In this document: positions 4,478 to 61,421 of the stretch, piece after piece | How the letters are laid out: each line of letters begins with the position of its first letter | Numbering within the stretch: position 1 is the first letter of the stretch | Assembly: GCA_024639145.1 (NCBI GenBank) | Contig: JAHEIZ010000002.1 | Coordinates: 155,027 to 219,026, forward strand | Origin: Actinomycetes bacterium | Lineage (GTDB): Bacteria > Actinomycetota > Actinomycetes > S36-B12 | DNA length: 64,000 bases | Reading direction: 5' to 3' | Notes under the pieces: model-generated | Seen by the model: the letters and a program-made list of their open reading frames with translations, nothing else | Told to the model about the DNA's origin: nothing | The model's database searches: none | Made by a program: the position numbers and the translations under genes

Positions 4478-5686
4478 GTGAGTCGTCGCGTCGTCATTCT
4501 CGGGAGCACGGGTTCCATCGGGACCCAGGCTCTCGATATCGCTGCGCGCAATCCCGAGGCGTTCGACATAGTCGGTCTGAGTGCGGGCGGCACTGATGTC
4601 GGACTCCTCGCCCGGCAGGCGCTCGACTTCCGAGTAGAGGCAATCGCTGTCGCGAGAGCGTCAGCCGTGTCCGATCTTCAGTTGGCCCTCTATGCCGAGG
4701 CCCAGCAGCGCGGGTTCTCCACGGGTCAGTTCGAGTTGCCGAAGATTCTCGCGGGTCCTGACTCGGCGAGTGAGCTGGCCGGCTGGCCATGCGATGTCGT
4801 GCTCAACGGGATCGCCGGCGCTGCCGGCCTGGTACCGACGCTCGAGGCACTGCGCGCAGATCGCATGCTGGCGCTCGCCAACAAGGAATCCCTGATCATC
4901 GGCGGTCCGCTAGTGAAGGCCCTCGCCCGGCCCGACCAGATCGTGGCCGTTGACTCCGAGCATTCGGCTCTCGCCCAGTCGCTGCGTTCTGGCACGGCTC
5001 GGGAAGTGCGACGCCTGGTTCTCACCGCGAGCGGCGGGCCATTCCGGGGCAAGACTCGTGCGCAGCTCGCCGACGTCACTCCGGCGCAGGCGTTGAAGCA
5101 CCCGACATGGGCCATGGGCCCCCTCGTCACGATCAATTCCGCCACGTTGATGAACAAGGGTCTTGAGGTCATCGAAGCGCATCTGCTCTTCGACATCGAT
5201 TTCGATGCGATCGATGTCGTCGTGCACCCCCAATCCGTCGTTCACTCGATGGTCGAGTACGTCGATGGCTCGACCATCGCCCAGGCGAGCCCGCCTGACA
5301 TGCGACTTCCGATCGCACTCGGGATGTCCTGGCCTGACCGCGTTCCCGGGGCGGCCCACCCCTGTGACTGGACTTCCGCGACCGCCTGGGAGTTCTTCCC
5401 GCTCGATGAGGAGGCCTTTCCGGCAGTAGGTCTGGCCCGACGGGCCGGCAGCGCCGGCGGCACCGCGCCCGCAGTGTTCAACGGAGCCGATGAGGCGTGC
5501 GTCGAGGCCTTCCTCGCCGGCCGCATTCCCTTCACGTCGATCGTCGACACGGTCGATCGAGTGCTGCAGGAGCACCTCGCTGTCGGCAGCGGGGAATGGG
5601 TTCCCGGGAACTCCGTCACCCTCGACGACGTCTTACATGCGGATGCCTGGGCACGCGCTCGGGCCGCGGAGATCTCGGGGAGCTGA
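4478..5686 (+). CDS. dxr: 1-deoxy-D-xylulose-5-phosphate reductoisomerase
   Basis: [51 protein letters not shown]; GTG start at 4478 preferred. Confidence 0.97.
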
Positions 5687-5687
5687 C

Positions 5688-7010
5688 ATGCTGCAAGTCA
5701 TCGGCATCCTGCTCTTCGTCATCGTGATCGGCGGATCGATCGCCCTTCATGAACTCGGGCACCTCATTCCTGCGAAGGCATTCGGGGTGCGGGTCTCGGA
5801 GTACATGATCGGCTTCGGTCCGACCCTGTGGTCACAGGTCAAGGGCGAGACTCGATACGGAATCAAGGCCGTGCCGCTGGGCGGCTACATTCGAATGATC
5901 GGAATGCTTCCGCCTGCTAAGGGTGATGCGGAAGGTACTGCGCGCCGGATGTCGACGGGGCGCTTCGCGATCATGGTGGCGGATGCGCGTCGAGCCTCGG
6001 TCGAGGAGATCGAGCCCGGTGACGAAAACCGTGTCTTCTACAAACTGCCCGTGCGCAAGCGAGTCACCATCATGCTCGGCGGTCCGACCATGAACCTGCT
6101 CCTCGCATTCATCCTCTTCTCGATCATGCTGGTGGGTATCGGCCTCCCTCAGCCCACTTTGACCATCTCGCGGGTCGTGCCCTGCACGCCAACTGCAGAG
6201 CAGCCGCTTGCCGCTCCGCTTCCGTCCGGCCAATGTCCGACGGGCTCGCTGACCGGCCCTGCCCAGGCAGCAGGACTGCTTCCCGGTGACACGGTCACGG
6301 CGGTTAATTCCACGCCCGTGAAATCCTGGGACGACATGACTGATTGGATCCGCGCGCACGGGGATCAAAGCGTGACCGTCACCGTTGATCGGGCGGGAAC
6401 ACCGATCGATCTGAGTATTGACGTCGCCACAGTCGAACGGCCTGAGTACGACGCCAATGGCGTCGCCACTGGTGCGACAGTGACATCCGGATTCATCGGC
6501 GTTTCCCCAGGCGTCGAATACGTCTCTGCTGGCTGGTCCTCGGTGCCCTCGTACATGTGGGACATCACCGTGGCATCGGTCAAGGGACTCCTCTCGCTTC
6601 CGGTACGCCTGTACGAACTCGTGAAGGACACCTTGATCGGCGGCCAGGATCGAGCGATTGATGGCCCGGTCAGTGTCGTGGGAGTGACTCGAATCGGCGG
6701 CGAGGTGGCCGCGATGGACCAGCCGTTGGTGGCGAAGGCGGCGACTTTTCTCGGGCTCGCTGCTTCGTTGAACCTGTTCCTCTTCCTGTTCAATCTGATT
6801 CCGGTGCTCCCGCTGGATGGCGGTCACGTAGCGGGAGCGTTGTACGAGGGAACCCGACGTCGTCTCGCTCGACTATTCGGACGGCCTGATCCGGGCCCCG
6901 TTGATGTCGCGCGCCTGCTGCCCGTTGCATATGTGGTGGCCGGGATCCTGCTGGCGATGGGCGTGATCGTGATCTGGGCCGACGTGGTGCGCCCGATCTC
7001 ACTCGGCTAG
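5688..7010 (+). CDS. rseP: Site-2 (M50) zinc metalloprotease with PDZ domain
   Basis: HELGH, PLGGYIRM, NLIPVLPLDGGH; located between dxr and ispG; ATG at 5688. Confidence 0.93.
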   Translation: MLQVIGILLFVIVIGGSIALHELGHLIPAKAFGVRVSEYMIGFGPTLWSQVKGETRYGIKAVPLGGYIRMIGMLPPAKGDAEGTARRMSTGRFAIMVADARRASVEEIEPGDENRVFYKLPVRKRVTIMLGGPTMNLLLAFILFSIMLVGIGLPQPTLTISRVVPCTPTAEQPLAAPLPSGQCPTGSLTGPAQAAGLLPGDTVTAVNSTPVKSWDDMTDWIRAHGDQSVTVTVDRAGTPIDLSIDVATVERPEYDANGVATGATVTSGFIGVSPGVEYVSAGWSSVPSYMWDITVASVKGLLSLPVRLYELVKDTLIGGQDRAIDGPVSVVGVTRIGGEVAAMDQPLVAKAATFLGLAASLNLFLFLFNLIPVLPLDGGHVAGALYEGTRRRLARLFGRPDPGPVDVARLLPVAYVVAGILLAMGVIVIWADVVRPISLG

Positions 7011-11938: not shown

Positions 11939-12943
11939 ATGGATATCGATGTCAGCGCGCTCAAAGCACTTGTCCGCGAGAAGGAGCTCTCTCTCGACCT
12001 CGTGGTCGACACCATCGAGCAGGCACTTCTCACTGCCTACCATCGAACCGAGGGTGCAGCCACGCGCGCGCGCGCGACCCTCGACCGAAAGACCGGTCAC
12101 GTCATTGTCTACGCGACCGAGCTCGACGACGAGGGAAATGTCGTGCGCGAGTACGACGACACGCCCGAGGGTTTTGGCCGAATCGCGGCGACCACCGCGC
12201 GCCAGGTGCTGCTCAATCGCCTTCGCGAGGCCGAGGATGACGTCACCCACAGCGAGTTTGCCGGGCGCGAGGGCGACCTCATCTCCGGAGTGATTCAGCA
12301 GAACAGCAATCCGCGCATGGTGCGCGTTGACATCGGCAAGGTTGAGGCGAACCTGCCTCCGGAGGAGCAGGTGCCGGGCGAGTCATACGTGCACGGTGAG
12401 CGGATCAAGGGCATTGTCACGGCCGTGCGCAAGGGCTTCAAGGGCCCGCAGGTCACTATCTCGCGCAGCCACCCCAATCTCGTTCGCGCTCTCTTCGCCC
12501 TGGAGGTTCCCGAGATCGCCGATGGCACGGTCACGATCAACGCACTGGCCCGCGAGGCTGGGCATCGCACGAAGATCGCCGTGCGCTCAACCGTGCCCGG
12601 CGTGAACGCCAAGGGTGCCTGCATTGGCCCCCTGGGTCAGCGCGTGCGCCAGGTGATGAGCGAACTCGGCGGCGAGAAGATCGACATCGTCGACTTCAGC
12701 GATGACCCTGCCGAGATGATCGCTCACGCGCTCTCACCGGCCCGCGTGGAGTCCGTGCTGATTGTCGATCCGGTGGCACGTGCAGCCCGCGTGATCGTTC
12801 CTGACTACCAACTCTCCCTAGCGATCGGTCGAGAAGGGCAGAACGCCCGACTCGCGGCTCGCCTGACCGGGTGGCGCATCGATATTCGCTCCGATGCCGC
12901 GCCAGTGGCACCGGTGAGCCAGGGCGCGGAAGACGACAACTGA
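11939..12943 (+). CDS. nusA: Transcription termination/antitermination factor NusA
   Basis: [13 protein letters not shown]1 domain, [46 protein letters not shown]. Confidence 0.98.
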
Positions 12944-12944
12944 G

Positions 12945-13193
12945 GTGATTCGCACGTGCATCGGGTGCCGGGCCCGTCAGGAGCCCGACGCCGAACCTCC
13001 ATTGGCGCATGTGGTGGCCGTGGGTCAGGTGGTCACGCCTGATCCGCGCGGCCTGCTGGATGGGCGTGGAGCGTGGGTGCACCCCCAGTGCGTCAGCGAG
13101 GCCACCAAGAGGCGCTCCTGGGGCCGCGCACTACGGCTCGAGGGCGCGGTCGACCTGTCGTTGGTTCAGGAGCCGGGTGCGCTACGGGTATAG
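12945..13193 (+). CDS. ylxR: YlxR/DUF448-family RNA-binding protein
   Basis: RTCIGCR and GRGAWVH motifs; located between nusA and infB. Confidence 0.85.
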   Translation: MIRTCIGCRARQEPDAEPPLAHVVAVGQVVTPDPRGLLDGRGAWVHPQCVSEATKRRSWGRALRLEGAVDLSLVQEPGALRV

Positions 13194-13251
13194 TGCCTCT
13201 TGGTCAGTGGCATGTCCGCCCTGATCTCCGCCCACCGTTCGGGAGCCCCTC

Positions 13252-13331
13252 ATGAGGACTTACACCCGATGAACGCACGGATTTGACCATGCGTCGTTTG
13301 AACTGACGGCCCGGTGCGGTAAGCCCGGGCC
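13252..13331 (+). promoter_or_regulatory. infB leader: three consecutive mini-ORFs followed by a GC hairpin
   Basis: MRTYTR* 13252-13272 (SD GGGAG 13241-13245), MNARI* 13269-13286 (ATGA overlap), MRRLN* 13289-13306, stem GGCCCGG 13308-13314 / CCGGGCC 13325-13331; candidate -10 TATAGT 13189-13194. Confidence 0.55.
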
Positions 13332-13346
13332 AAAGACAGGAGAGTT

Positions 13347-16055
13347 GTGTCAAAGGTCCGGGTCCACGAGCTCGCCAAAGAGCTCGGGGTTTCTAGTAAG
13401 GACGTTCTTGCCAAGCTGCAGGAACTCGGTGAATTCGTAAAGTCCGCCTCATCCACGGTCGAGGCTCCCGTCATCCGCAAGCTCAAGGAAGCTATGCCGG
13501 CTGTCGAGGCTCCCGTGAAGAAGACGGCGGCCAAGAAGACGACCAAGAAGGCGGTTGCGACCGCTGAGGAGCCTGCCGCCGTCGCGGAATCCGTGTCGGA
13601 GGCTCCCGCAGAGCCCGCCATGAAGGCAGTTCCGGCCCCCGCTCCTACTCCCGCACCCGCGCCTGAGCCCGGTGACGCAACTGAGCCTGCGGCGTCCTCC
13701 ACTCCCGCGCCCCCCGCCGGGCCGCGTCCTGCTGGCCCGCGCCCGGGTAACAACCCATTCGGTGGCAGCACCGGCATGGGTCGCCCTGCTGGCCCGCGCC
13801 CGGGTAACAACCCGTTCGGTGGCAGCACCGGCATGGGTCGCCCGGCCCCGGCTCCTGCCGCGGGTGGCGTGCCCGGCGCCCCGCGCCCCAATCCCGGCTC
13901 CATGCCTGCTCGCCAGGTACGCCCGGCTCCGACAGGTCGTCCCGGCGGTCCGGGCGGTCCCGGTCGTCCCGGTGGAGCACCCGGCGGTCGTCCCGGCGGT
14001 CCCGGTCGTCCCGGTGGAGCACCCGGCGGTGGCTTTGCCGGTCGTCCCGGTGGTCCCGGTGGAGCACCCGGTGGAGCACCGGGTGGAGGCTTCCCCGGCC
14101 GTAGCGGTCCCGGTGGTCGCGGCACCACGGCGGGCGCCTTCGGACGTCCGGGCGGTCGCCCGTCCAAGGGACGCAAGTCCAAGCGCGCCAAGCGTCAGGA
14201 ATTCGACAACATGCAGGCCCCGGTCATGGAGGGCGTGCGCATCATGCGCGGTGGCGGTGCCACCGTTCGCCTGCCTCGCGGTGCGAGCCTGACCGACTTC
14301 GCGGAGAAGATCAACGCGATGCCGGCTGATCTCGTCAAGGTGCTCATTGGCCTGGGCGAGATGGTCACGGCCACTCAGTCGATCGATGACGACACGTTGC
14401 GCCTGCTCGGCGAGGAGCTCAGCTACAACGTCGAGGTCGTCTCGCCGGAGGACGAGGATCGCGAGCTCCTCGAGTCGTACAACCTCGAGTTCGGCGAGCA
14501 TGAGGGCGATGACGATGATCTCGTCATCCGCCCGCCGGTCGTCACCGTCATGGGTCACGTCGATCATGGCAAGACTCGTCTCCTCGATGCGATTCGCAAG
14601 ACCAATGTCATCGGCGGAGAGGCCGGCGGCATCACTCAGCACATCGGCGCTTACCAAGCGACCGCGCACACCGCTGATGGCGATCGCAAGATCACCTTCA
14701 TCGATACGCCCGGTCACGAGGCCTTCACGGCGATGCGTGCCCGTGGTGCTCAGGTCACCGATATCTCGATCCTCGTGGTCGCAGCTGACGATGGCGTGAA
14801 GCCGCAGACGATCGAAGCACTCAACCACGCGCAGGCCGCTGGCGTGCCGATCGTGGTGGCCGTGAACAAGGTCGACAAGGAGGGTGCTGACCCGATGAAG
14901 GTCCGTACTCAGCTCACGGAGTACGGCCTGGTTGCCGAGGAATTCGGCGGCGAGACCATGTTCGTCGACGTCTCGGCGAAGGCAGGAACGGGCATCGAGA
15001 GCCTGCTCGACGCAGTCCTGCTCACCGCTGATGCGGCGCTCGACCTACGTGCCAACCCGAACCAGCAGGCCGAGGGTGTGGCCATCGAGGCTCATCTCGA
15101 CCGCGGTCGTGGCCCCGTTGCGACCGTGCTCGTGCAGCGCGGAACCTTGCGTGCCGGTGACTCCATCGTCGCCGGTGACGCCTTCGGCCGCGTTCGTGCA
15201 ATGCTCGATGACGAAGGCAATGTCGTCGACGAGGCCGGTCCGTCGTTCCCCGTCCAGGTTCTCGGCCTCACGTCCGTGCCCGGTGCAGGCGACAGCTTCA
15301 TGGTCGTGGCGGAGGATCGCATCGCACGTCAGATCGCCCAGACCCGACAAGCTCGCGAGCGCAATGCACTGCTCGCGCGCAATCGCGTCAAGCGCTCGCT
15401 CGAGGACTTCCTCGAGTCGGTGGAGCGTGGCGAGATCTCCGAACTCACCCTCATCATCAAGGGCGACGTATCGGGATCCGTCGAGGCGCTCGAGGATGCC
15501 CTGCTCAAGATCGATGTCGGCGACGAGGTCTCCCTGCGCGTGATTCACCGCGGTGTCGGTGCCATCAACAAGAACGACGTCACCTTGGCGAGTGCATCTA
15601 AGTCCGTCATCATCGGCTTCAATGTGCGACCCGAGGGCAAGGTGGCCGAACTCGCCGCAGAAGAAGGCGTCGACGTCCGCTACTACAGCGTCATCTACCA
15701 GGCACTCGAAGAGGTCGAGGCTGCTCTTAAGGGCATGCTCAAGCCCGAGTACGAAGAGGTTCAGCTCGGTACAGCCGAGGTGCGCGAGGTCTTCAAGTCG
15801 AGCAAGTTCGGCACCATCGCCGGCTGTCTCGTGCAGTCGGGTGAGATCAAGCGCAACTCGAAGGCTCGTCTCATCCGTGACGGCGCCGTCGTCGCTGAGA
15901 GCGTTGCCGTGGCAGGCCTGCGTCGCTTCAAGGACGATGTCACCGAGGTTCGCGAGGGCTTCGAGTGCGGTATCAACCTGGGCAACTTCCAAGATGTCAA
16001 GGTCGACGACGTCATTGAGACCTATGAGATGCGCGAGAAGCCGAGAAAGCCATGA
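13347..16055 (+). CDS. infB: Translation initiation factor IF-2
   Basis: [12 protein letters not shown], Pro/Gly-rich linker, [38 protein letters not shown]. Confidence 0.99.
13728..13841 (+). repeat. 57-bp tandem duplication inside infB ([19 protein letters not shown] x2)
   Basis: Units 13728-13784 and 13785-13841 differ at one synonymous base (CCA/CCG). Confidence 0.95.
13936..14090 (+). repeat. Low-complexity GGT-CGT-CCC / GGTGGAGCACCC repeats (GRPGG/PGGA) in the IF2 linker
   Basis: Short degenerate in-frame repeats visible directly in the sequence. Confidence 0.85.
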
Positions 16056-59526: not shown

Positions 59527-61421
59527 TGGCAATCACACTCTCGGCAGCGCAGCTGACCCCGGTCCTGCACCTGGTTACCTGCGGTTCTGTCGATGACGGC
59601 AAGTCGACACTCATCGGTCGTCTCCTCGCGGAGACTGGCTCTGTGCCGCTCGACACCCTTGACTATGCCCGGCGCACGCGCCGCGGTGGCTCCACCGTTC
59701 CGGTCGGCGAGATCGACTACTCGCTGTTGACTGATGGGCTTGAGGCGGAACGCGAGCAGGGCATCACCATCGACGTTGCCTACCGTCACATGAACCTTCC
59801 GAACGGCCGCCGCGTCCTCGTGGCCGACTCGCCCGGTCACGAGCAGTACACGCGAAACATGGCGGTGGCTGCCTCGAACGGCGACGTGGCGATCTTGATG
59901 GTCGATGCCGCTCGCGGTGTCCGAGCCCAGACTCATCGTCACCTCACCATCTGCGCACTCATGGGCGTGAAGACCATCATCGTCGCCGTGAACAAGATGG
60001 ATTTGGTTTCCTACGAGCACGCCACCTATGAAGAGATCTCGGGTTCTGTGCGCGCGGCGGCAGCACGACTCGATGTGGCCGAGATCATCACGATTCCAGT
60101 GAGCGCGTTCTCAGGTGACAACATCACCGTTGCCAGCACCAATATGCCCTGGTACCAAGGGCCCACTCTGCTGGGTGCACTCGAGGAGTGGGAGCCCGTG
60201 CCCTCCGAGGCCGCGGCGAACGGCACTGAGCCCTTCAGGTTCCCCGTTCAGTTCATCGTGCGTGCTGACGGCAACTTCCGCGGATATGCGGGCACGGTTG
60301 TCTCGGGTTCGGTTGCGCGCGGCGACTCGATCGTCATCGCCGACAGCGGTCGCCCGGCCGTGGTCGATCGCATCGTGACTTATGACCTCCACACCGACGG
60401 GCATATCAAGGATCTCGATCGTGCCGAATGGGGGCAGGCCGTCACGATCACGCTCGACAGAGAGGTCGATGTGACGCGCGGTGATGTCATCACCGGCGCC
60501 GACGGCGATTCCTTGGAGCCTGCTGATCGCTTTGCAGTCGACATGGTGTGGCTGGGGGAGGAGCCCCTCGCACATGGTCGCTCCTACCTGCTCATCTCCG
60601 GGTCTCGATCCGTGCCGGCCACCGTCACGAACGTTCGTCACAAGACAGATGTCGTCACGGGACACCACGATGCCGCGCGCATCCTGGAGATGAATGACAT
60701 CGGCCGGGTAGAGGTTGCCACTGACAAGCCGGTTCCACTTGACACCTATGCAATGTGCCGCGACACCGGTGGCTTCCTCCTTGTCGACCGAGTTACGGCA
60801 GATACGGTCGCCGCGGGCATGGTGGTGCATTCGATGCGTCGTTCGGCCAACGTGAAGTATCACGACTACGCAGTTGATCATGAGGCTCGTAAGCTCCTCA
60901 TGGGTCACGATGCCAAGGTCGTCTGGCTGACAGGGCTGTCTGGAGCGGGCAAGTCGACCATCGCCGATGCGACTGTTCGCAAGCTGCATTCGTTGGGCGT
61001 GCACACGTATGTTCTTGATGGTGACAACGTGCGTCATGGTCTCAATAAGGATCTCGGCTTCACTCCGGAGGACAGGGCCGAGAACGTTCGGCGCGTCGCG
61101 GAGGTGAGCAAGCTGATGCGTGACTCCGGTGTCGTCGTACTGGTGGCGCTGGTCTCGCCCTTCACCGCGGATCGCCGAGCGGCGAAGGAGCTCTTCGAGC
61201 CCGGCGAATTCCTCGAGGTGTTCGTCGACACGCCCCTCGCCGTTGCTCAGGAGCGAGATCCGAAGGGCCTGTACGCGAAGGCGGCGGCCGGAAAACTGCC
61301 GAATATGACGGGCGTCGGGCAGGACTACGAGATCCCTGTGCACCCCGATCTCGTCCTGGCGGGCAACGGCGACCTTGATGCTTCTGTGGACTCGCTCGTC
61401 AAGGCCATCCTGGGCGAGTAG
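59526..61421 (+). CDS. cysNC: Bifunctional sulfate adenylyltransferase subunit 1 / adenylylsulfate kinase
   Basis: CGSVDDGKSTLIGRLL, EREQGITIDVAYR, DSPGHEQYTRNM, NKMD; C-terminal WLTGLSGAGKST, LDGDNVRHGL, RDPKGLY. Confidence 0.97.
   Translation: MAITLSAAQLTPVLHLVTCGSVDDGKSTLIGRLLAETGSVPLDTLDYARRTRRGGSTVPVGEIDYSLLTDGLEAEREQGITIDVAYRHMNLPNGRRVLVADSPGHEQYTRNMAVAASNGDVAILMVDAARGVRAQTHRHLTICALMGVKTIIVAVNKMDLVSYEHATYEEISGSVRAAAARLDVAEIITIPVSAFSGDNITVASTNMPWYQGPTLLGALEEWEPVPSEAAANGTEPFRFPVQFIVRADGNFRGYAGTVVSGSVARGDSIVIADSGRPAVVDRIVTYDLHTDGHIKDLDRAEWGQAVTITLDREVDVTRGDVITGADGDSLEPADRFAVDMVWLGEEPLAHGRSYLLISGSRSVPATVTNVRHKTDVVTGHHDAARILEMNDIGRVEVATDKPVPLDTYAMCRDTGGFLLVDRVTADTVAAGMVVHSMRRSANVKYHDYAVDHEARKLLMGHDAKVVWLTGLSGAGKSTIADATVRKLHSLGVHTYVLDGDNVRHGLNKDLGFTPEDRAENVRRVAEVSKLMRDSGVVVLVALVSPFTADRRAAKELFEPGEFLEVFVDTPLAVAQERDPKGLYAKAAAGKLPNMTGVGQDYEIPVHPDLVLAGNGDLDASVDSLVKAILGE

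Follow-up and report, generated by a model that had tools for sequence, protein, structure and literature searches.

The question raised by this locus is why the short interval ahead of infB, the gene of translation initiation factor IF2, should carry a row of three minute reading frames ending at a hairpin, and what such a row could do for the gene that follows. The locus lies in a stretch of 64,000 nucleotides (nt) of an Actinomycetes bacterium (contig JAHEIZ010000002.1, positions 155,027 to 219,026), which we call the window. A preliminary description, made from the letters of the window, had proposed that the three upstream open reading frames (uORFs) hand ribosomes on to one another by re-initiation, gauging the supply of IF2 or fMet-tRNA, and that the ribosome on the last of them controls the hairpin and thus infB. 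The comparison of relatives shows that the row is no accident, since a chain of this kind precedes infB in 100 of 103 genomes and in 42 of 45 families of the window's class. Moreover, the 3' arm of the hairpin has a second, covarying partner inside the first codons of infB, and pairing with it encloses the Shine-Dalgarno (SD) sequence of that gene as well as its start codon. We think that the leader between ylxR and infB may be a translational control module, in which ribosome flux through the relay of uORFs closes the infB start and so gives negative feedback on IF2 synthesis; this reading is tentative, and we would place it somewhat short of probable.

Direct reading of the letters finds all the leader elements that had been named beforehand (TATAGT, GGGAG, the three uORFs, the GC stem, AGGAG and the GTG) where they had been placed. 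The parts needed for the argument are the following.

13241..13245, forward strand: GGGAG, an SD-like sequence 6 nt ahead of uORF1 (direct reading).
13252..13272, forward strand: uORF1, MRTYTR*, with ATG at 13252 and TGA at 13270-13272 (direct reading).
13269..13286, forward strand: uORF2, MNARI*, with ATG at 13269 and TGA at 13284-13286; its start overlaps the uORF1 stop as ATGA at 13269-13272 (direct reading).
13289..13306, forward strand: uORF3, MRRLN*, with ATG at 13289, 2 nt past the uORF2 stop (TGA-CC-ATG), and TGA at 13304-13306 (direct reading).
13308..13314, forward strand: arm A, GGCCCGG, predicted to form the 5' side of the hairpin and mimicking arm A' in sequence, 1 nt past the uORF3 stop (fold).
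13323..13331, forward strand: arm B, GCCCGGGCC, the predicted partner of A (through 13325-13331, CCGGGCC) or of A' (through all 9 nt) (folds, covariation, RNAalifold).
13338..13342, forward strand: AGGAG, the SD sequence of infB (direct reading).
13347..13349, forward strand: the GTG start of infB, in the loop that B:A' would enclose (direct reading, ORF list, fold).
13355..13363, forward strand: arm A', GGTCCGGGT, complementary to arm B; its 9 nt begin with the third base of infB codon 3 and end with the second base of codon 6 (fold, covariation, RNAalifold, codon bias).
13347..16055, forward strand: infB, encoding IF2 of 902 amino acids, the putative regulated gene (ORF list and Pfam).

The chain has to be judged by comparison. 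Loosely defined, as three or more ORFs of 2-12 codons in which neighbors overlap by 4 nt or stand up to 5 nt apart, a chain occurs 212 times on the two strands of the window's 2.52-Mb genome, 74 times with two overlaps, and any claim of significance from one genome was rejected on this count. Taken by itself, this genome does not set the chain apart from chance, but the comparison with relatives does so by a wide margin; we judge the chain real because it is conserved in them and not from single-genome statistics. A DNA search of 41 relatives gave matches in 33, and those in other genera and families reach upstream of the infB start to about window position 13228-13240, i.e., through the leader. 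For the counts, the window's class was sampled with 93 genomes from 36 families, of which the 300 nt before infB were taken (five duplicates and one locus of an unpublished genome were left out), and 10 genomes of nine further families were added later. Unpublished genomes enter nothing but two tallies of IF2 matches, and none of the claims depends on them. In the counts, an infB-leader chain was scored when at least three ORFs of 2-12 codons ended 15-80 nt before infB. Such a chain was found in 91 of the 93 genomes (34 of the 36 families) and in nine of the 10 added ones. Dinucleotide shuffles of the 93 leaders yielded it in 25 of 4650 trials.

Outside the class the picture is different: 0 of 38 genomes from other classes of the phylum (about 30 families) have the chain, and there ylxR or nusA ends close to infB, or an upstream ORF overlaps the infB start. 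At two loci of family f60 of another class (L105 and L106), a GTGA overlap joins the stop of the upstream ORF to the infB start itself, a direct coupling that has neither relay nor hairpin. An exact-pattern scan of one genome per species gave at least 120 stretches; among the matches listed (120 stretches), 112 precede an IF2 gene, 88 of them recognized by peptide pattern and 24 by eye (one being cut by the end of its locus). The named carriers among these matches are Streptomyces, Kitasatospora, Streptacidiphilus, Mycobacterium, Mycolicibacterium, Nocardia, Rhodococcus, Gordonia, Williamsia, Corynebacterium, Nocardioides, Actinomadura, Actinoallomurus, Phycicoccus, and Ornithinimicrobium. The leader chain and its switch are ancient within the window's class. 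An 11-mer that the preliminary description had named for mycobacterial and streptomycete leaders, TGACCATGCGT, is present in four of the seven named Mycobacterium/Mycolicibacterium leaders compared but absent from the three Streptomyces leaders compared, which carry the same type of chain.

To judge from what is kept and what is free to change, the mini-ORFs appear to behave as reading frames and not as a motif. Among the last three ORFs of the 91 genomes, 171 of 182 junctions are 4-nt overlaps (ATGA or GTGA). In the window, one of the two junctions shares 4 nt between stop and start in this way (NUGA, here ATGA), the other being TGA-CC-ATG; the window's genus has lost the overlapped ATG at the second junction and uses an in-frame ATG farther downstream instead, and sister genera (L007 and L013) have an ATGA-overlapped, in-frame uORF3 start two or more codons upstream. 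There are mostly four sense codons in uORF1 (4-7 in most relatives), five in uORF2 in 75 of the 91 genomes, and five to seven in uORF3 in 87 of them. Start-to-start spacings across families are 8, 11, 14, 17, 20, 23, 26, 29, 32, and 35 nt, and when adjacent ATGA or GTGA sites are measured with no parsing of ORFs, 168 of 196 spacings equal 2 modulo 3 (71 of 79 with one leader per family). GTG replaces ATG at 14 of 91 uORF1 starts and at six of 91 uORF2 starts, and the final stop is TGA in 33, TAA in 28, and TAG in 30 of the 91 genomes, each of the three occurring in 13-15 families. The peptides had been expected to vary, which is the case for uORF3, whose commonest peptide occurs in six of the 91 genomes; uORF1 and uORF2 are less free than expected, MSAR/MSTR and MSTQR recurring in them.

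The alignment used for the comparisons by genus (A1) was made by MAFFT from one leader per genus, 61 genera in all, and was not fitted to any structure. In these genera an SD-like 4-mer precedes infB in 61, uORF1 in 24, uORF2 in 12, and uORF3 in none, and the earlier remark that only the first uORF has an SD sequence thus broadly holds. Most families have GGAAGCRGGTCGAG 8-12 nt before uORF1 (columns 26-40 of A1; about 13236-13251 in the window), which can be seen as an extended but imperfect SD-like element; the window's family has GGGAG in its place. The infB start codon is GTG in 60 genera and ATG in one.

How such a relay might act on infB is suggested by the two pairings open to arm B. Arm A (GGYCCGG) is nearly identical to infB codons 3-6 (AAG GTC CGG GT), and therefore B can pair with either. 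In A1, pairing is seen in 85.9% of cells for the A:B helix and in 93.4% of 549 cells for the nine pairs of B:A', and the cells changed on both sides number 28 and 15, respectively; one B:A' pair is CG 43, GC 8, UG 3, and GU 2 times, another AU 30, GU 23, and GC 5 times. None of 500 shuffles reached the observed covariation score for A:B or for B:A', and sliding the partner by 1-3 columns leaves pairing at no more than 56.8% for A:B and 53.4% for B:A'. RNAalifold run on A1 predicts B:A' and no other helix, and the loop that it encloses, which contains the SD and the start, measures about 22 nt, with 20-28 nt in 60 of the 61 genera. Folding of the window sequence gives A:B as the minimum-energy structure when A is present; this hairpin alone, with its 7-bp GC stem, has -20 kcal/mol and a z-score of -3.4. 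With A removed, the GC-rich 9-bp B:A' helix forms between 13323-13331 and 13355-13363, at -25.8 kcal/mol and z -3.18. The two pairings share arm B and are mutually exclusive, one of them sequestering the infB start, and covariation and window folds back both. The predicted B:A' pairing is newly found here. The whole 167-nt leader folds no better than its own shuffles (z -0.89). A small local hairpin at 13335-13351 (GACA with UGUC), which takes part of the infB GTG into its pairing and lies on either side of the SD, is present in both conformations of the window fold.

Further evidence for B:A' comes from leaders in which the N-terminus of IF2 has diverged, since their B arms match it: GACCCGAG goes with CGGGTC in Nocardioides-type leaders, GGTCCGAG with CTCGGACC, GGTCCGCG with CGCGGACC, and GGTCCGTG with CACGGACC. 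When arms were mixed and matched by calculation, native B/A' combinations bound at about -19 to -21 kcal/mol and foreign ones at -8 to -16 kcal/mol; for GGTCCGGG, GGTCCGTG, GACCCGAG, and GGTCCGAG the native partner is better than the cross-type one by 4-8 kcal/mol, the exception being the GC-palindromic types, which cross-react. Synonymous codon choice at the infB start also fits the predicted pairing. The Arg codon within A' is CGG in 50 of 63 genera, CGG making up 13% of the Arg codons of the window's genome, and the Val codon preceding that Arg is GTG in 0 of 55 genera, GTG making up 36% of Val codons genome-wide. In Mycobacteriaceae-type leaders, A is GAGGYG, B is the anti-SD sequence CGCCTC, and a 5' element is complementary to A'; these appear, from their complementarities, to be the same parts wired differently.

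The stop of uORF3 keeps a narrow distance from arm A, 0-5 nt in 54 of the 61 genera (0-2 nt in 37 and 4-5 nt in 17), and lies at least 12 nt from arm B (median 19 nt) in 58 of 59 genera. With this, the comparison that the preliminary description had called for turns out in its favor: conservation across the class extends to the overlaps of starts with stops, the shortness of the uORFs, the distance from stop to hairpin, and the covariation of the hairpin. The relay part itself holds no conserved helix in the RNAalifold consensus on A1. A pairing seen by eye between the body of uORF2 and the start of uORF3 (ACGCA/TGCGT) is not in that consensus, and an extra hairpin enclosing uORF1, formed by the SD region with the last uORF1 codons (TCGGG/CCCGA in the window, TCGAG/CTCGA elsewhere), was dropped as a candidate: it has no energetic signal (mean z -0.06, z < -1.5 in six of 61 leaders) and RNAalifold does not predict it.

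A ribosome with a stop codon in its A site covers roughly 10 nt beyond that stop. A ribosome terminating on uORF3 would thus cover or unwind A and would not reach B. Set free from A, B would pair with A', closing the SD and the GTG and shutting de novo initiation at infB, whereas formation of A:B would leave the SD, the start, and the first codons of infB free. The preliminary description had supposed that ribosome position on uORF3 controls the hairpin; the B:A' pairing would supply a concrete mechanism for this. As a whole, the earlier interpretation is partly supported. The cost of opening the infB start (positions -12 to +13) was computed from the partition function for 178 distinct leaders, with the footprint of a ribosome at the uORF3 stop masked or not. 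Masking A raises the mean cost from 11.6 to 16.7 kcal/mol, and the rise exceeds 1 kcal/mol in 143 of the 178 leaders and in 97 of the 104 of the commonest type; with the start site taken as -15 to +13, which clips arm B, the mean rise is +3.0 instead of +5.1 kcal/mol.

The relay would give this switch its input. Reaching the uORF3 stop would take one SD-led initiation and two SD-less re-initiations, and because of this requirement the flux of ribosomes onto A would rise steeply with the supply of initiation components (IF2-GTP-fMet-tRNA). When initiation capacity is poor, A would stay free, A:B would form, and the infB start would be open, which amounts to negative feedback on IF2. The obvious candidate for the sensed quantity is IF2-fMet-tRNA, given that infB is the gene that would be controlled; we infer both this sensing and the sign of its effect on infB.

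Several observations weigh against this account, or at least against its simplest form. Masking A lowers the opening cost in 19 of the 178 leaders, and two types are mixed, Mycobacteriaceae-type leaders with 14 up, six neutral, and eight down, and the f46 type with four, three, and six, respectively; a single direction of control for all lineages was rejected on these grounds. The minimum-energy fold of the Mycobacteriaceae type pairs the end of uORF3 and the A region with infB codons 4-11, and therefore a ribosome on uORF3 would open it at its base. The opening cost is high even when no ribosome is present (the mean of 11.6 kcal/mol given above), which is odd for an abundant essential protein, and this modelled equilibrium value hints that kinetics or active delivery of ribosomes matter. 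No conserved arrest peptide or motif was found in uORF3 among the 91 genomes, and the dwell of a ribosome at its stop would be brief. The nucleotide conservation of uORF1 and uORF2 exceeds what a pure start/stop grammar needs, and translation of the three uORFs is a prediction from the frame grammar. Finally, three families depart from the clean chain and make up the misses: in f13 it is degenerate, in f12 uORF3 has 23 codons, and f19 has two uORFs, the final one with 13 codons.

Other explanations have to be weighed against the same data. It is unlikely, in our opinion, that the coupling is positive, with B:A' shutting out free 30S subunits and relay ribosomes re-initiating at the infB GTG 33-62 nt past the uORF3 stop, which would tie IF2 synthesis to translation of the upstream operon. 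B:A' is indeed the best conserved helix and the sole one in the RNAalifold consensus, the start is costly to open even with A free, and a uORF3 ribosome would open the Mycobacteriaceae-type fold at its base, eight of the 28 such leaders being cheaper to open when masked; moreover, mycobacteria provide a demonstrated case of a uORF that serves as a landing pad by way of an AUGA overlap, according to the consulted part of PMC11260477. In the commonest type, however, the distance from the stop to B is such that a terminating ribosome could not melt B:A', and masking A strengthens closure in nearly all leaders (the 97 of 104 above). The strong SD that infB has of its own in every genus would be needless for a purely coupled cistron, the median of 42 nt between the uORF3 stop and the infB start is long for re-initiation, and positive feedback on an initiation factor would presumably be unstable. 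That the same relay and switch sense another quantity, such as release factor 2 (RF2), ribosome recycling factor or IF3, (p)ppGpp through its effect on initiation, temperature, or ribosome load, we consider quite unlikely. The sequence points to IF2 solely via the downstream gene, A:B and B:A' are close enough in energy for temperature or factors to shift them, and RF2 is a candidate since the internal junction stops are UGA, although the overlap junctions (171 of 182) are all TGA by construction. Against these possibilities stand the tie of the pattern to infB in 112 of the 120 stretches among the matches listed, the lack of any ligand-binding fold (no Rfam match and no extra conserved helix), and self-regulation being the usual logic for genes of translation factors.

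Two simpler explanations dispense with the switch. The mini-ORFs might only keep the gap of about 150 nt between ylxR and infB loaded with ribosomes as protection from Rho and RNase, the hairpins stabilizing the mRNA, with no sensing or switching. In the consulted part of a bioRxiv preprint (10.1101/2022.06.01.494293), reduced Rho termination in Mycobacterium tuberculosis is associated with NUGA overlaps and with uORFs that are translated. One RNA contig (13114-13742), identical to the window, leads from ylxR across the leader and on into infB. We regard such a purely housekeeping role as very unlikely, because it leaves unexplained the fixed distance from the stop to arm A, the covariation of B:A', which extends into infB codons at odds with normal codon usage, and the mimicry of A' by A; the other classes of the phylum, moreover, have neither the gap nor the chain (0 of 38). 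Hardly credible, in our view, is an untranslated motif, in which the repeated GAUGA would be a set of binding sites for a protein (YlxR or NusA) or part of a structured RNA and the frames would be incidental. YlxR binds RNA in other bacteria, and uORF1 and uORF2 are conserved at the nucleotide level, with CGATGAGCNC occurring up to three times. Yet the spacings vary in length and keep the frame (168 of 196 at 2 modulo 3), GTGA stands for ATGA in several families, the three final stops are used about equally, and the relay part shows no conserved helix and no Rfam match.

The proposed negative-feedback switch shares features with several known systems without coinciding with any of them. In ermC/cat attenuation, where the ribosome stands on a short ORF of the leader selects between two exclusive pairings, one of which hides a downstream start. 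The infB leader likewise has exclusive pairings, one hiding the start site; it differs in having three chained ORFs and not one, in showing no conserved arrest peptide or evident inducer, in that a ribosome at its stop is predicted to close and not open the start in most lineages, and in that the sequestering partner lies inside the coding region, in codons 3-6. GCN4 and ATF4 are eukaryotic cases in which re-initiation along a series of uORFs reports on the initiator-tRNA delivery complex and sets the main ORF inversely; IF2 is not a homologue of eIF2. The uORF series before infB would also report the supply of initiator-tRNA delivery, inversely to the main ORF, and the frame grammar and its conservation fit serial translation by re-initiation of this type, as predicted from the leaders. 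The differences are that the infB leader is bacterial, that it has 4-nt overlaps instead of scanning distances, and that the read-out would be an RNA switch and not the bypass of an inhibitory uORF. Taken as a whole, a bacterial counterpart of the GCN4 principle, in which the SD-less re-initiation relay steeply inverts the level of IF2-GTP-fMet-tRNA and flips the three-arm switch, as an ancient autoregulation of IF2 across the class, seems doubtful to us at present.

Among self-regulating translation-factor genes, infC has an AUU start read by IF3 and prfB an RF2-dependent +1 frameshift. As in these two, the factor's own step of translation would be assayed on its own mRNA, with negative feedback; the infB start, by contrast, is ordinary (GTG in all genera but one with ATG, so that non-canonical start-codon control of the infC type was discarded), there is no frameshift site, and the autoregulation is a putative one. 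In the shunt of plant pararetroviruses, a short ORF ends a few nt before a stable stem and the main start lies just beyond, eukaryotic 40S subunits being shunted across. The infB leader also has a short-ORF stop near the base of a stem and its main start just past it, but the 3' arm of that stem also covaries with another partner within the coding region, something for which a shunt has no need. We know of no translational autoregulation of IF2. The literature searched likewise yielded no infB leader of this kind and no such autoregulation, although supplementary tables may list the uORFs; on infB control it yielded transcriptional and cold-shock control in Escherichia coli only, and no paper was found with Rv2839c together with a uORF.

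The nearest published relatives are mycobacterial. NUGA overlaps and termination-reinitiation are frequent in M. tuberculosis, with uORF-to-uORF overlaps treated in general terms, in the consulted part of the bioRxiv preprint 10.1101/2022.06.01.494293, and reporters in Mycobacterium smegmatis show an AUGA-coupled uORF driving the downstream gene of another gene pair in the consulted part of PMC11260477. These cases resemble the infB leader in their 4-nt overlaps and in downstream ORFs that lack an SD; in the main texts of both papers infB does not occur, nor does a three-step chain ending at a hairpin or a B:A' switch, and their supplements may list the uORFs. The word infB is also absent from the main texts of PMC9094748 and PMC4633059 (ribosome profiling and Term-seq of M. 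tuberculosis), whose supplements may again list uORFs. A known RNA family, ribosomal-protein leaders included, was set aside as an explanation: Rfam 15 has no match at the gathering threshold in window positions 12800-13600, the best scores being 16.9 bits against a threshold of 38.2 and 16.1 against 33 (L31-Coriobacteria), and none in six named loci scanned whole at that threshold. As far as the literature and Rfam were searched, then, the infB leader looks like an undescribed leader-ORF-controlled start-site switch built on termination-reinitiation.

At about 110 nt, the leader is a defined element open to mutation, from which clear predictions follow. If the feedback reading is right, bacteria can measure their initiation capacity by serial re-initiation, which would be a new design among leader-peptide switches; the unusual constraints on synonymous codons at the infB start would be accounted for, and a ready-made sensor part would be at hand for synthetic biology in actinomycetes.

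The surroundings of the leader bear on how the infB message arises. The gene order in the window is rimP-nusA-ylxR-leader-infB-rbfA-truB, from the ORF list and Pfam (RimP, NusA, YlxR, IF-2, RBFA, and TruB), and 153 nt separate the ylxR stop (13191-13193) from the infB GTG (13347). Two further features belong here.

12945..13193, forward strand: ylxR (DUF448), the upstream neighbor (ORF list; Pfam YlxR, E 3.4e-11).
13189..13194, forward strand: TATAGT, which overlaps the ylxR stop (TAG) and is a candidate -10 element (direct reading).

Leaders from the window's genus, and those from some further genera in its family (f1), share the TATAGT hexamer, while the flanks vary. A sigma-70 promoter scan that requires a -35 element gave 0 sites in window positions 12800-13500. 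River and freshwater metatranscriptomes yield contigs that include the leader; such contigs show presence in RNA libraries and cannot prove a 5' end or translation, and stretches that they leave uncovered mean nothing. The contig identical to the window that spans ylxR, leader, and infB (X1) is one of these. Two others from two runs (X2 and X6) both have 13215 as their first position, the read-through from 13114 coming from a different run, so the contig starts at most hint at a 5' end downstream of TATAGT. The region 13189-13215 may be an internal promoter or a processing site for the infB transcript, and we treat it as a candidate for either. An intrinsic terminator or transcription attenuator was considered and rejected, as the GC-rich hairpin is followed by AAAGACAGGAG, with no U-run, and there are 0 terminator-like sites in 12800-13500.

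Short chained frames also occur ahead of other genes. In other actinomycete genomes, tandem 11-nt repeats (CGATGAGCNCC) form two to four four-codon mini-ORFs (MSTR* or MSAR*) chained by ATGA, and the arrays run directly into the start codon of a long gene. They were seen at L224:4151-5794, L195:6-1199, L159 (minus strand, ORF 5569-6192), and L237:2117-3276, and the genes that follow include one for a ResB-like protein, a MurG-type glycosyltransferase 28, a histidine phosphatase, and one without a Pfam match. The MS(T/A)R* arrays may be a simpler use of the same relay grammar, and if the GCN4-like reading of the infB leader is true, the arrays at the genes for the ResB-like protein, the MurG-type enzyme, and the histidine phosphatase would employ that gauge in a simpler form. 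In the window's own genome (G000), outside the window, contig C18 carries at 61000-61118 an 18-nt mini-ORF, GTGACGGTGGTGTGGTGA, seven times after a first GTG mini-ORF; the eight mini-ORFs are joined by seven GTGA overlaps and end 30 nt before an ORF of 108 codons.

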